Shown piece after piece: positions 39,981-48,972 of a stretch of DNA of 64,000 bases; the stretch's first letter is position 1; each line of letters starts with the position of its first letter. Source of the stretch: Escherichia phage teqsoen; sequence record MN895436.1; one strand, 5' to 3'. A program made the translations under genes and the position numbers. The notes below the pieces were generated by a model. That model worked only from the letters and a program-made list of their open reading frames with translations. It was not told the origin of the DNA and made no database searches.

Positions 39981-42038
39981 CTACATTTTGAACTTTTTAG
40001 ACATTCCGTTGATGTTAACCAAAGAAGCCAAGATTTGAGAAACTTCGTTTTCCTCTTCTTTTGATTCTTCTACAAGGAATTGATTAAATCCAGCCATTGG
40101 ACGAACTTCACCAGTTTCCATTAGATGGTCGCCATCATATACCGATTCCTCTAATTGTTCAGAAGGAGGAACGATTGTACCTTCTATTAGATACTTGTTA
40201 TAAGCAGTTTCTTTCATAAAGTACGTGCTCACTTTATTAATCTTCAGTAAAATTCCACGCGGTAGAATAACTTCAGCTTCTGATGGAAATCCTGATAAAT
40301 GACCTGGAACGATAACTTTGATTCGCTCAGCTCCTTTAATTACCATACCCACGCTAGTTTCAGCATCTTCATTAGCATATGTAGAATGACTACCCATATG
40401 CATCAAATCTTCTGCATCAACGGAACCTTCTCCTTCGCCAGAAAATACTGCGCCGGAATCATCTAGAGCCATATAGTTTTTACCGTGCTCACCGAAAATA
40501 TTTGGTTTAAGCGATGTGGATACGAAGTTCTTGAAATAGAACATTTTGTTTTCAATATTATGACGCAAAGTTTTAAAGGTAACTTCTTGTCCACGGTAAA
40601 GTGTAGTTCCTGGAGGAAGAACTGAACCTTTAGCGAATGCAGAATCCAACGTCTCGATGTGCTTAATAGCACGTTCCATATATTCTTCACGGGTAGAATC
40701 TGGTTTACCCAAAAGGAACGAGTTCATTTCAACATATGAATCAGCACAATAATCTTCAATTACGTCAGATTCAGCCTGAGTTAATCCTTTTGGAGTTACT
40801 TCAGTACTTGCGTATTCATATGCCTGGGCAGCAGATTCATTAATCAATTTATAAATGCCATTCATGACAAATTGAATAATAGCTACCTTTTCATCTGGTG
40901 TGGCTTTAGAACCTTTAACTAAATCATTAATAATTTTCTTAATAACATCAAAGCTATTAGAAATATTAATGTCAGCAAGATCGCTTAAAATTTTATCGGT
41001 TTTATAATCAAAGAATTCTTTATTCTTTAAATATTCTTGAGAACCTTGATATGTTATATCGCTCTGCAGCTTGATAGATGGATCACGTAAACGTGCATGG
41101 GCCAATGCAATATGATTTCGGAAGCTTTCTAGTTCATAATCATTAGATTTAAAACGAGAAGCACTCCTCATACCACCGATAGCTCCTTTGCCGAAGTTTG
41201 AACCAATCTGAATAACGCCAGAGTTCATTGGTCCTTCTGCTTTATATACCGGAACTTTAGATTCAAACTCTTGATATTTCTTAGCGGCGAAGCTATCACC
41301 CTGAAGTGAAGCATCGACAGTAGAATATTGAGCTTGTGCTGCTAATCGACGACTAATTTTAGTTTTCTGAATAACAGCTTGATCCGTGCGCTTATCATTT
41401 TCTAAAGCAATAGAAGCAGCAACAGCAACAGCTTTAGGAACAGCATTACCTGTTTTAACGTCTACATAAACATCACCAACCTTTGATTCAACTTTTGTGA
41501 ATAACTCAGTTGAAATAGGAGGTACACCTGGAATGTCTTCTAAATTGGCATTTTTACGGTAAACCATAATATATGCATATTTCTTATCATAGTCCCAGAT
41601 TTCCTTTAAGAGAACATATCGACCTGCTCCTTTAGTACGTACTAAACGGTCAGCAATAACTTGCATTTGACGAGCTGCGCCATTTGTTTTACTCTTTAGT
41701 ACGCGGAATAGGCATGCGTCGATTTTATACTGTTTCATTGTTTGAAGAGCAGTATCAAAAACGGCATTAATGACACCAATTGGATTTCCACCCAAGTTTT
41801 TAAGCTTAACTAATGATAGTTTCTCATTGACACCTATCATTACGATATGCATCATTTTATCGCCTGGCTTAACGTTTTTATTTGTATCACCACCAGAGGT
41901 GTATGTACAAAATCTAAATCCAGGAAGCACGCTTTCTTCGCCGGCTTGGATAGCAAAAATTTGTGGTATTTTATGCTTAGGATTTAAGTTAACAACCGGC
42001 GCCGAAGCGCCGTCAAATAATTCTGTAATAAGTTCCAT
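39981..42038 (-). CDS. Alt-like ADP-ribosyltransferase paralog (second copy)
   Basis: 685-aa ORF whose N-terminus (MELITELFD...GDKMMHIV) and C-terminal LMETGE region parallel the adjacent Alt; ART-type motifs LYRGQ, FVSTSL and EAEVILPRG. Confidence 0.8.
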   Translation of the reverse strand: MELITELFDGASAPVVNLNPKHKIPQIFAIQAGEESVLPGFRFCTYTSGGDTNKNVKPGDKMMHIVMIGVNEKLSLVKLKNLGGNPIGVINAVFDTALQTMKQYKIDACLFRVLKSKTNGAARQMQVIADRLVRTKGAGRYVLLKEIWDYDKKYAYIMVYRKNANLEDIPGVPPISTELFTKVESKVGDVYVDVKTGNAVPKAVAVAASIALENDKRTDQAVIQKTKISRRLAAQAQYSTVDASLQGDSFAAKKYQEFESKVPVYKAEGPMNSGVIQIGSNFGKGAIGGMRSASRFKSNDYELESFRNHIALAHARLRDPSIKLQSDITYQGSQEYLKNKEFFDYKTDKILSDLADINISNSFDVIKKIINDLVKGSKATPDEKVAIIQFVMNGIYKLINESAAQAYEYASTEVTPKGLTQAESDVIEDYCADSYVEMNSFLLGKPDSTREEYMERAIKHIETLDSAFAKGSVLPPGTTLYRGQEVTFKTLRHNIENKMFYFKNFVSTSLKPNIFGEHGKNYMALDDSGAVFSGEGEGSVDAEDLMHMGSHSTYANEDAETSVGMVIKGAERIKVIVPGHLSGFPSEAEVILPRGILLKINKVSTYFMKETAYNKYLIEGTIVPPSEQLEESVYDGDHLMETGEVRPMAGFNQFLVEESKEEENEVSQILASLVNINGMSKKFKM

Positions 42039-42041
42039 GAT

Positions 42042-44132
42042 TTATCCTTGAACGAACTTGTAAGGCATGTTTGTAATATCTATGCAAGACGCAATAATTC
42101 CAAGAGATGATTCTACTTTCTGTTTAACATTTGATGAAACAAATGATGCAAAGTCAACTCTATCTTCTATATCACCTGTCATTGTAACCAATTCACCAGT
42201 TTCCATTAAATGGTCTCCGTCATAGATTACTGATTCGGTGAGTTCTTCTGTGGTCATAACTTCAGCTTGAATGAGTTTTGTATTATTAGATGTTGTTCCG
42301 TCATTATTAGAAGCATCAGTTATTTTATTAACTTTGACCATCAATCCGCGCGGTAGAATAACTTCAGCTTCTGTTGCTATTCCGAGACTTCCTGGATATA
42401 CAACATTAACTTTATGCGCGCCGTCAATTGCCCATCCTATTTGAACTTTAACGTATTCAGGATTTTCTTTATACGCTCTTATTTCGTTTGGATTAATAGT
42501 TATTCCTTCTTCATTTTTATCAACTGTTAATTCATTACGAGCTTCTGGTTCTAAAAGACCAATACCAGCATGTGTAATTCCAAAACGCCCAAAAATGATA
42601 GGAGTTAAAGAAGTAGATACAAAATTTCTGAAATAGAACACTTTATTTTTAACTAGCGCTTCGTATATAGGAGCAGTCATACTTTGAGCACGATAAACTG
42701 TAATGCCTTCCGGTATGCGGTCACCATTTTCAAAAGCTGAATCTAAATTATTTATAGCAGATTCAATTTCTTTTTCACTCATTACATCATATCGTTCTGG
42801 ATTGTAACGACCTAAAAGAAGATTATTAATGTCTGTATATCCTGAACCACAATATTCTCTAATGCCGCGCTTTTGTGATGGAGTATATTTAGAACCATCA
42901 CGGGCAATAGTAATATCAATCATTGGACCAGCACCAATTCCAGAAAAGCTATAAATCATTCGTTTGAGGAATTTAGTTTTTGCTGCATTCCAGGCATTTT
43001 TAGTTATTTCTTCCCAGACTTCATCTGGCTGCCCTTTACGAGTTTTATTATGTTTATCAAGCCAATTATCTTTATATTCTTCAAAGAGTTGATTAACAGC
43101 TGCTGCGTATTTCTCTAAACATTTTATTGAAGTAGTTGGTTCATTTTTAATCGCATTAAGAATTACATCTTTAATTTTTTCAGAAACTTCATTAACCTCA
43201 CTTTTTGAAAAGAATTTATAGTCATAATGAAGTTCATCTGCAGTTCCTTCAGCAATAATTTTTGCTGCCTTAGTTTTAGAAGCTAATGAATTAATTCCAA
43301 GCTTCATTTCTTCTGCTTCGGGAATTAAAGGAGCGGTAGCAGGTTTATTGAAATTAGCTGCAGTAGATTCATACTTCTGGAATAATTCACTTTCAAATCT
43401 AGAAGACTCTAACGATTGACTTTGCGCAATTGCTCTACGGGAAATTTTAACTTTAACGATTACAGCTTGATCAGAACGTTTATCATTTTCTTGCGCAATA
43501 GATGCTGCAATTGCCTCATTTTTAGTTACTTGGGCTCCAGTATCTTTATTGATATAAACATCACCGACCTTCGATTCAACCTTAGTAAAGAGCTCGGTAC
43601 TAATTTCCGGAACCCCTGGAATGTCTTCTAGTGATACATTTTTGCGATGTATAAGAATATATGCATACTTTTTATCGTAATCCCAGAGTTCCTTAAGAAG
43701 GACGTATCTGCCACCTGAACGACTACGGATAAGTCTATCAGCAATAACTTGAATTTGTCGAGCTTGACCAGCGGTTTTAGACTTAAGAATACGGAGCATA
43801 CAGGCATCAATTTTATACTGACGCATTGTTTGCATTGCAACAGTAAAAACTGAATTGATATAATTAATTGGGCTTGGACCAAGACCTTTCAATTTAGCAA
43901 TTGAACCTTTAGCAGTTAATGTAAAAGGAACAATATGCATCATTTTATCGCCCATCTTTAAATCACGATTAGTATCACCTCCAGATGTATAGGTACATAA
44001 ACGAAAGCCTGGTTGTTCAATTGCATCATCAACGTGAACTGAAAAAATTTGCGGTATTTTCTTCTTTGGATTTAAGTTTGTAATCGGAAGAGTAGTATCT
44101 TCGTCAAATAATTCTGTAATGAGTTCCATCAT
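42042..44132 (-). CDS. alt: Alt ADP-ribosyltransferase (virion-packaged, modifies host RNA polymerase in T4)
   Basis: 696-aa ORF (start may be the second Met) beginning (M)MELITELFDEDTTLPITNL; ART motifs VYRAQ, FVSTSL, EAEVILPRG. From recollection of T4 Alt, this copy is the more likely ortholog. Confidence 0.8.
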   Translation of the reverse strand: MMELITELFDEDTTLPITNLNPKKKIPQIFSVHVDDAIEQPGFRLCTYTSGGDTNRDLKMGDKMMHIVPFTLTAKGSIAKLKGLGPSPINYINSVFTVAMQTMRQYKIDACMLRILKSKTAGQARQIQVIADRLIRSRSGGRYVLLKELWDYDKKYAYILIHRKNVSLEDIPGVPEISTELFTKVESKVGDVYINKDTGAQVTKNEAIAASIAQENDKRSDQAVIVKVKISRRAIAQSQSLESSRFESELFQKYESTAANFNKPATAPLIPEAEEMKLGINSLASKTKAAKIIAEGTADELHYDYKFFSKSEVNEVSEKIKDVILNAIKNEPTTSIKCLEKYAAAVNQLFEEYKDNWLDKHNKTRKGQPDEVWEEITKNAWNAAKTKFLKRMIYSFSGIGAGPMIDITIARDGSKYTPSQKRGIREYCGSGYTDINNLLLGRYNPERYDVMSEKEIESAINNLDSAFENGDRIPEGITVYRAQSMTAPIYEALVKNKVFYFRNFVSTSLTPIIFGRFGITHAGIGLLEPEARNELTVDKNEEGITINPNEIRAYKENPEYVKVQIGWAIDGAHKVNVVYPGSLGIATEAEVILPRGLMVKVNKITDASNNDGTTSNNTKLIQAEVMTTEELTESVIYDGDHLMETGELVTMTGDIEDRVDFASFVSSNVKQKVESSLGIIASCIDITNMPYKFVQG

Positions 44133-45830: not shown

Positions 45831-46096
45831 TGTTCATCCTTTAGAGTTTGGTTTACAGCTCTATTATAAATCAATTCATCATTAAGCTCAGTCAAAGACC
45901 TATGGTACGTGGTTCTAACTTTATTTCCTTGCATCCAGTGTTTGACGTAAATGAAACCTTGCTCTACACATTTTTTAAAAATTCGTTCGTCTTTTTGAGC
46001 TCGGAATTCTGGATTGCATCTAAAAAATTGATTTACGTGACCGTAATCACGTGTAGTATTACCTTCATTTTCATAAATAGTGTGAACAACAAACAT
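45827..46096 (-). CDS. Hypothetical protein (T4 30.1-like)
   Basis: 89-aa ORF with ATGA coupling to gene 30. Confidence 0.6.
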   Translation of the reverse strand: MFVVHTIYENEGNTTRDYGHVNQFFRCNPEFRAQKDERIFKKCVEQGFIYVKHWMQGNKVRTTYHRSLTELNDELIYNRAVNQTLKDEQ

Positions 46097-46932
46097 TAGA
46101 ATGCTCCTTGGAAAATATTATCACCACTAGTAGGTCTATTATACAAATACTCTATGCCACCAGGTTTAATATAGTTCCATGTCTGAAACGGATGTGTCTG
46201 ATATGGATGATATGGATTATAAGGATTAAATCCAGGAGTTCTCCAGGTAGTGTTCCAACGAAAAGAATCATTTTTAATCATCTTTTCAATTACATCTTTT
46301 ATAGCTTTTTCACTATCAAAACTTTCTTTATTTTCCTTTGGTGAAAAAAGCTTATTCTCTACATCGTTCCATGTATAAACTCGCTGAGCGGTTTTTGGAA
46401 TACTGTCACGTTCCCCTCGAGCCATCCAATACACAGGAACACGTAATATTTCACTCGCATGATCGCAGTGGTGAGCGAGATCGTCAATATAACAAATTAC
46501 GTTATATTTCTCTTTTGCCTTTTTGAACAACTCTTCTTTTGAAGAATCATGACCACACATCATTACTTCTGAGAAGGCACCAGGAAAAAGAGCATTCAAA
46601 TTAAATTGACGATTCAGCAGAGCGTCAATAGAATCACCCAATGCTGTAACAGCTACAAAATTATAATCTTCTTTTAATTTGTTAATTACACACAGAGCAT
46701 CTTTATATGGAGACAAGTAACGAATAAAATCTGATCGATTGTATTTTTCAATTAACTTGACGCCAAGTTCTTCATCACAATTAAAAAGTTTACCAGGAGA
46801 AATAAATTTTTCATCTTGGATCATTTTTAAAATATGTTCCAACGGAAGATTATATTTCTGAGCAAAATAAGGAAGGCCTGATTGCCAGCTTAAACATACT
46901 CCATCAATATCAGTTAAAATAGTAGGCTTCAT
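46096..46932 (-). CDS. Hypothetical protein with HAD-phosphatase-like N-terminal motif (T4 30.2-like)
   Basis: 278-aa ORF; the N-terminus ILTDIDGVCLSW resembles HAD superfamily motif I (DxDG). Confidence 0.55.
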   Translation of the reverse strand: MKPTILTDIDGVCLSWQSGLPYFAQKYNLPLEHILKMIQDEKFISPGKLFNCDEELGVKLIEKYNRSDFIRYLSPYKDALCVINKLKEDYNFVAVTALGDSIDALLNRQFNLNALFPGAFSEVMMCGHDSSKEELFKKAKEKYNVICYIDDLAHHCDHASEILRVPVYWMARGERDSIPKTAQRVYTWNDVENKLFSPKENKESFDSEKAIKDVIEKMIKNDSFRWNTTWRTPGFNPYNPYHPYQTHPFQTWNYIKPGGIEYLYNRPTSGDNIFQGAF

Positions 46933-47393
46933 AGAGAGTCTCTTAATAGGTTTAACACATCAATAAATTCAGCTTCGGTTAGTATTGTATCATCTTTTGT
47001 TAGACCACTAGCCATGCTGTGCTTCAAAACTTTTCCTTTCGAGGCTTGTAATGCATCACGAAAGCCCTTGTTTTGAATCGCTGCTTCAAAATATGCATTT
47101 GTGTATAATTCTTTCCACGCCGGGGAGTATCTTGAAAATGGAACTCCAAGCCAGAAGAGGGTCCCACGGTCCTGAGCTCTAGCATAAGACCTTCCAGCTT
47201 GTTGGGCGGCAAGCCCGGATAACCCAAATATACGACGTTGTTGTTCAACATTTTTCACCTTGCATCCTTGGAGGAATCCTTCAAGACCTCCAAATTGAAT
47301 ACCATCCATAACGAAAGGCCAATGGGCGAAATTACTTAATGCACATGATGGCCACCTAAAATTGCTTCTAATCTCTAACTCAGACATTTTCAA
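46929..47393 (-). CDS. NADAR / YbiA-like (DUF1768) domain protein (T4 30.3-like)
   Basis: 154-aa ORF with SNFAHWPF, a motif I recall from E. coli YbiA (FSNFAAWP), at the same spacing from the N-terminus. Confidence 0.55.
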   Translation of the reverse strand: MKMSELEIRSNFRWPSCALSNFAHWPFVMDGIQFGGLEGFLQGCKVKNVEQQRRIFGLSGLAAQQAGRSYARAQDRGTLFWLGVPFSRYSPAWKELYTNAYFEAAIQNKGFRDALQASKGKVLKHSMASGLTKDDTILTEAEFIDVLNLLRDSL

Positions 47394-48540: not shown

Positions 48541-48777
48541 TTATTTTACTACTTTCCAATGCTGCCTGTCAAGTTTACCAACTTTTTTCATCTTCTCAAT
48601 TAAGCGTTCTGCACGTTGGCGAGCTGTAACATAATGCCATTCGCCTAATTCATTTTGTTCAATTTTTCCAACGATTATTGTATTCAATTCATAAATCCAA
48701 CCAGTAAAGAAATTATGAACTTGAATTGTAAAGGTGAAATCTGTTCCCATACCTTCTGTTGTTTCTACTTCATTCAA
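48541..48777 (-). CDS. Hypothetical protein (T4 30.8-like)
   Basis: 78-aa ORF; the annotated start is TTG, so the start is uncertain. Confidence 0.45.
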   Translation of the reverse strand: MNEVETTEGMGTDFTFTIQVHNFFTGWIYELNTIIVGKIEQNELGEWHYVTARQRAERLIEKMKKVGKLDRQHWKVVK

Positions 48778-48937: not shown

Positions 48938-48966
48938 GAAAATAAAAAAGGACTCCCGAAGGAGTC
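48938..48966 (-). terminator. Intrinsic terminator (minus strand) after the small basic ORF
   Basis: On the - strand: GGACUCC-UUCG-GGAGUCC hairpin followed by TTTTTTATTTT. Confidence 0.65.
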
Positions 48967-48972
48967 CTCAAC

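Follow-up and report, generated by a model that had tools for sequence, protein, structure and literature searches.

NADAR enzymes and the T4 anti-DarT factor

Gene 30.3 of phage T4 (adfN) is the closest described counterpart of the gene considered here, which lies on the minus strand at 46929..47387 of a 64,000-nucleotide stretch of Escherichia phage teqsoen (MN895436.1; the whole stretch is called the window below). In the study of Schuller et al. 2023 (PMC11543638), NADARs were found to reverse the guanine ADP-ribosylation caused by DarT1, and a His variant was remarked on in those of phages. In vitro, T4 gp30.3 was found to hydrolyse guanosine-ADP-ribose within DNA (Toxins 2024, PMC11125620). 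T-even phages' resistance to DarTG1 was mapped to gene 30.3 by Johannesman et al. 2025 (Nat Commun, PMC11825919), who gave it the new name adfN ('anti-DarT factor NADAR') and found AdfN both necessary and sufficient for this resistance. Deletion of adfN made T4 and T2 sensitive to DarTG1, ectopic adfN rescued RB69, and the purified T4 protein stripped ADP-ribose from DarT1-modified DNA (PMC11825919). The guanine-ADP-ribose glycohydrolase activity of T4 gp30.3 has been shown in vitro by two groups (PMC11125620, PMC11825919). The E36A variant was inactive in vitro on ADP-ribosylated DNA and gave a partial rescue of RB69 in vivo, and function was also impaired by K43A and by a C-terminal truncation (PMC11825919). 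An interaction between AdfN and DarT1 was not detected in a two-hybrid assay, and DarTG2 was unaffected by AdfN (PMC11825919). Independent confirmation comes from a transposon-sequencing study (bioRxiv 2025), in which insertions in 30.3/adfN were lost specifically on a DarTG1 host. The methods of the Toxins 2024 paper (PMC11125620) describe the T4 gp30.3 construct as 'residues 1-208'; T4 gp30.3 of the reference genome has 152 amino acids.

Related proteins occur in other phages and beside bacterial toxins. AdfN-Bas32 and AdfN-Bas60, from T5-like and Vequintavirinae phages, are likewise phage-encoded orphan guanine-specific NADARs that counter DarTG1, but they belong to independently acquired branches of the superfamily and, unlike the T4-type protein, need no phage infection to neutralise DarT1. 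The NADARs associated with DarG1/DarT1 (the BC4488 family, with E. coli C7 NADAR and Geobacter lovleyi NADAR, PDB 8bat) differ from the window gene, which is an orphan with no DarT beside it and encodes a smaller protein that has no fold extensions and a His instead of an Asp in the last strand.

The window gene is the orthologue of T4 gene 30.3

The window belongs to a Tequatrovirus (T4-like) genome. The region matched 691 phage records in a megablast search, with a top identity of 98% to Yersinia phage fPS-90, Escherichia phage VEc20 and other Tequatrovirus isolates. The genes on the minus strand follow the order DNA ligase (gene 30)-30.1-30.2-30.3-30.4-30.5, which is also that of T4 (record NC_000866), and the neighbours of gp30.3 are common to 12-14 of the 14 close loci. 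The product and T4 gp30.3 are equal in length and identical at 150 of 152 residues (99%); they differ by two conservative substitutions, Q22H and I125M. This near-identity and the location of the gene, flanked by 30.2 and 30.4 and downstream of the ligase cluster, establish orthology. In addition, the two proteins have E36, K43, H123 and the C-terminal helix in common. Given 99% identity and the retention of all functional residues, the open reading frame (ORF) is therefore T4 30.3/adfN, and we put the probability that its product is a small, stand-alone N-glycosidase with the NADAR fold, countering DarTG1, at roughly 0.94. A first-pass annotation, made from the sequence alone, had proposed a NADAR/YbiA-like eraser of guanine ADP-ribose acting against DarT, and the fold, the catalytic residues and the identity to gp30.3/AdfN support this proposal. 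The feature itself is already known as T4 30.3 or AdfN.

The ORF at 46929..47393 on the minus strand is real, but the length and start given in the first-pass annotation had to be corrected. The ORF lister counted 154 amino acids from a TTG, whereas in the T4 reference record the orthologous gene begins at an ATG two codons further inside. The published numbers of E36 and K43 fit only this ATG, so the start of gene 30.3 likely lies at 47387. The coding sequence (46929..47387), recorded as a NADAR-fold DNA ADP-ribosylglycohydrolase, thus comprises 152 codons (MSELEIR...) and a TGA stop, and the two additional in-frame codons (TTG AAA; 47388..47393, minus strand) are probably untranslated. The packing is operon-like: the ATG of 30.3 overlaps the TGA of the upstream 30.4, and its TGA overlaps the ATG of the downstream 30.2 (ATGA).

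To follow conservation in the gp30.3 family, 104 homologues were gathered, and the 72 full-length ones were aligned with the window protein (73 sequences). All 20 invariant positions of the family are retained in the window protein. The motif ALSNFAHWPF (residues 16-25; 47313..47342, minus strand) contains the family-invariant residues A16, L17, S18, N19, F20 and F25. Both HMMER and hhalign aligned it to FSNFAAWP of E. coli YbiA (residues 29-36), which bears out the resemblance noticed in the first-pass annotation. The codon of the catalytic Glu36 lies at 47280..47282 on the minus strand; this residue is present in 73/73 family members and aligns with YbiA E48. The catalytic Lys43 (codon at 47259..47261, minus strand) is found in 71/73 members and aligns with the invariant YbiA K55. 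The window protein thus contains both members of the pair that corresponds to E88/K95 in E. coli C7 NADAR.

Natural inactive alleles of this gene exist. In RB69 the last 15 residues are lost through a frameshift, and this allele goes with sensitivity to DarTG1; a matching truncation of the T4 protein has reduced activity (PMC11825919). The window allele could in principle be such a decayed copy, particularly as the Q22H difference from T4 falls within the SNFAxWPF motif. However, no other column of the motif varies as much as position 22, and both Q22H and I125M are located in freely varying columns of the family alignment. The window protein is also full length, with no frameshift over its 152 amino acids, and the C-terminal helix (residues 138-151; 46935..46976, minus strand) is intact and predicted in the structure model, with a predicted local distance difference test score (pLDDT) of 92-97 for this block. 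Exactly the same protein is found in other phage isolates, for example vB_EcoM_Shinka and JK08, and one isolate's copy is labelled 'NADAR domain containing protein'. With the invariant positions kept as well, decay is a very improbable explanation, and the allele carrying Q22H and I125M would be expected to behave as the T4 protein does.

Family membership and the NADAR fold

The window protein scored 233.5 bits (E=7.7e-70) in the Pfam family PF08010 (Phage_30_3), for which the curated cut-off is 36, and the match spans profile positions 1-138 of 138. In the PHROG collection gp30.3 is included in PHROG 652, a profile of 296 positions of which the window protein matches 126-272; longer, N-terminally extended relatives seem to exist. 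Searches with the single protein gave no match in NCBIfam, and phmmer against PDB sequences returned a sole match, 3rjz (E=0.62), which we regard as chance. The family profile, on the other hand, found YbiA (2b3w) among PDB sequences with E=0.0079 (hmmsearch). Profile-profile comparison by hhalign gave a probability of 93.4% (E=2.5e-7) against YbiA alone and of 97.3% (E=1.6e-11, 125 columns) against a 38-member alignment of the YbiA family, and it paired S18-N19-F20, E36 and K43 of gp30.3 with the YbiA invariants S30-N31-F32, E48 and K55. The AlphaFold2 model built with the family alignment was confident (pLDDT 93.1, predicted template modelling score 0.88). By these comparisons, the conserved residues and the structure model, the gp30.3 homologue of the window is a member of the NADAR superfamily with the YbiA fold.

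The relationship to YbiA is a distant one. E. coli YbiA (2b3w) and the Phytophthora nicotianae NADAR (8bau) belong to PF08719, which the window protein does not match directly, and identity to them is about 17-21%. The shared fold and the shared Glu/Lys pair would be compatible with a metabolic role, in which the protein would act as a YbiA-type N-glycosidase that destroys reactive intermediates of the riboflavin pathway; this activity was the one originally ascribed to the YbiA/COG3236 proteins of bacteria and plants, and the RefSeq name of YbiA is 'N-glycosidase'. The invariant YbiA segment D130-Y132-W133-G136-G137 (in ENDxYWGDGG), however, has no counterpart in gp30.3. In the hhalign comparison the seven residues E128-G134 of YbiA, which include D130, Y132 and W133, face a gap, and neither G136 nor G137 is matched by the residue opposite it. 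Nor is the Glu of the last strand conserved: E125, which like D130, Y132, W133, G136 and G137 is invariant in the YbiA alignment, faces the variable K122 of gp30.3. Moreover, the published phylogeny places T4-type NADARs closest to DarT-associated NADARs, and the phenotype is DarTG1-specific. A riboflavin-related role is hence hardly credible for this protein.

In place of that Glu, the last beta-strand of gp30.3 (residues 120-123 in the model) contains His123, which is invariant in 73/73 sequences and encoded at 47019..47021 on the minus strand. A His at this position has been described as a hallmark of phage NADARs, where the YbiA family has a Glu and the DarT-associated, DarG1-type proteins have an Asp (PMC11125620, PMC11543638). 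His123 probably substitutes for these residues and may be catalytic.

Proposed mechanism and points that weigh against it

On the basis of the T4 work, infection of a host carrying DarTG1 would activate DarT1, which would ADP-ribosylate guanine bases of the phage DNA and so block replication. AdfN, through Glu36 and Lys43, would then cleave the N-glycosidic bond between guanine and ADP-ribose, by which the DNA would become replicable again. The target of AdfN would be the lesion and not the toxin, and its action would be specific to guanine adducts, such that the thymine-modifying DarTG2 would not be countered. For the window gene, the direct basis of this scheme is the identity to T4 gp30.3, the fold, the conserved residues, the intact C-terminus and the synteny, while the activity and the counter-defence in vivo would carry over from the literature on the T4 protein.

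Several observations weigh against the assignment or against its simplest form. With the single protein, PF08719, the Pfam model for NADAR, gave no match at E<=1, so that a profile check of the kind suggested in the first-pass annotation fails if taken naively. The model is silent because Pfam places the protein in the separate family PF08010, not because homology is absent; some database proteins have precomputed matches to both PF08010 and PF08719. In addition, hhalign placed H123 opposite H126 of YbiA and the variable K122 opposite the catalytic E125, which is one residue off the published equivalence. Finally, AdfN-T4 fails to rescue DarT1 toxicity in uninfected cells, where unlike DarG1 it cannot stand in as antitoxin, and it barely rescues T5 or Bas25, which makes a simple picture of free-standing DNA repair incomplete. 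The T4-type AdfN is known to be fully effective only when T-even phages infect; DNA hypermodification is not the cause of these limits, and the authors suggest a T-even factor.

A different account would be that the T4-type AdfN needs a phage-encoded partner, with which it would form a two-enzyme module and for which 30.2 is one candidate, or that phage NADARs, through the invariant His123, have an active site that works by a different mechanism. We consider this account unlikely. The stand-alone N-glycosidase remains our preferred assignment in the following sections.

Neighbouring genes of adfN

The window contains two full-length Alt-type ADP-ribosyltransferase paralogues in tandem (685 and 696 amino acids; 39981..42038 and 42042..44132, minus strand), both of which match PF03496. 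T4, in contrast, has one alt and the remnants alt.-1 and alt.-2. The second copy scores lower than the first against the ADP-ribosyltransferase profile (71.5 vs 129 bits). The first-pass annotation had pointed to two Alt enzymes in the same genome as the NADAR gene; the enzymes are real, but the implied functional link is unsupported. Such a link would fit a main role of AdfN in erasing or tuning the ADP-ribosylation that originates from ADP-ribosyltransferases of the phage itself (the two Alt paralogues, ModA/ModB), or in degrading soluble immune signals derived from ADP-ribose. The two Alt-type enzymes are encoded on the same strand, 3-7 kb off, and in the survey of Iyer et al. 2022 (PMC9503650) T4-like NADARs were seen as early genes beside ADP-ribosyltransferases, with soluble ADP-ribose derivatives proposed as substrates. 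The dependence of AdfN on T-even infection likewise leaves room for additional roles. When more loci were compared, an Alt homologue was present within 4 kb of the gp30.3-family gene in 12/14 close loci but in only 1/66 distant loci, which is not the pattern of a conserved module. The adjacency of Alt and 30.3 is therefore local Tequatrovirus synteny, and we rejected a functional linkage of the two.

The other evidence points in the same direction. Alt modifies protein arginine, whereas all NADAR activities demonstrated so far act on guanine-ADP-ribose, and the demonstrated substrate of AdfN is DNA ADP-ribosylation inflicted by the host. Genetics gave a clear DarTG1-specific phenotype, and gene 30.3 is dispensable on hosts without DarTG1 (PMC11825919; bioRxiv 2025 transposon screen). 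A main role in the phage's own ADP-ribosylation is thus distinctly unlikely, and the reading of the gene as an anti-DarTG1 factor is kept.

We also searched the genes around 30.3 for a DarT toxin, and none of 30.2 (278 amino acids), 30.4 (68 amino acids), 30.1, 30.5 and 30.6 had a DarT match in Pfam. Gene 30.3 is an orphan NADAR without an adjoining DarT1 toxin gene, in agreement with the literature.

Gene 30.2 (46096..46932, minus strand; 278 amino acids) has the N-terminus MKPTILTDIDGV, with a DxDGV sequence that resembles motif I of HAD phosphatases. It gave no sequence match in the PDB, and Pfam yielded at most weak hints; it matched only PHROG 420 (unknown function), with weak similarity to a polynucleotide kinase/phosphatase PHROG. 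It is conceivable, as a speculation, that this translationally coupled downstream gene encodes the partner of AdfN or the T-even factor. A homologue of 30.2 was located within 4 kb of the gp30.3-family gene in only 6/66 distant loci.

Inside 30.3, in the +1 frame, lies ORF 30.3' (47024..47251, minus strand; 75 amino acids), which matches Pfam DUF2883 (E=4e-54) and which the T4 annotation records as a product of internal translation. Across 13 related loci, 30.3' is down to 52-62% amino-acid identity in comparisons that leave gp30.3 at 84-86%; its ATG is absent in several of these loci, and one has an internal stop. With the gp30.3 protein held fixed, only four codon junctions can yield a stop in the frame of 30.3', and the frame remained open in 18% of synonymous reshuffles; for an open frame of this length the figure was 18-28%. 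Because of the fast divergence, the lost ATGs, the internal stop and the openness expected by chance, ORF 30.3' was rejected as a selected overlapping gene. In all probability 30.3' is no genuine gene, and DUF2883 probably reflects no more than the conserved gene that overlaps it.

Upstream of 30.7 we noted a near-consensus sigma-70-like promoter site (TTGACA-18-TAAAAT, 11/12; 48572..48543, minus strand), and further upstream a strong terminator-like hairpin with a 9-bp stem and a T-run (48969..48948, minus strand). The promoter and terminator scan gave regional site counts that were not above the shuffled expectation, and the promoter-like site stood out as its one notable case. The site and the hairpin possibly mark the start of an early transcription unit that includes adfN.

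Distribution and significance

The gp30.3 family was found in 1,510 of 50,697 phage records, from phages of Escherichia, Klebsiella, Aeromonas, Acinetobacter and Vibrio as well as other phages, and it is annotated as 'hypothetical protein' in nearly all of the records listed. Most of the 1,510 carrying records have this label, and an update to AdfN/NADAR is overdue. The window locus does not advance the question of why the T4-type AdfN depends on the T-even context. The gene exemplifies, in textbook fashion, how a phage co-opts an orphan antitoxin-like enzyme to undo the DNA ADP-ribosylation imposed by a bacterial defence; work of 2023-2025 settled this for T4 and T2, and the window contributes only one more near-identical allele.
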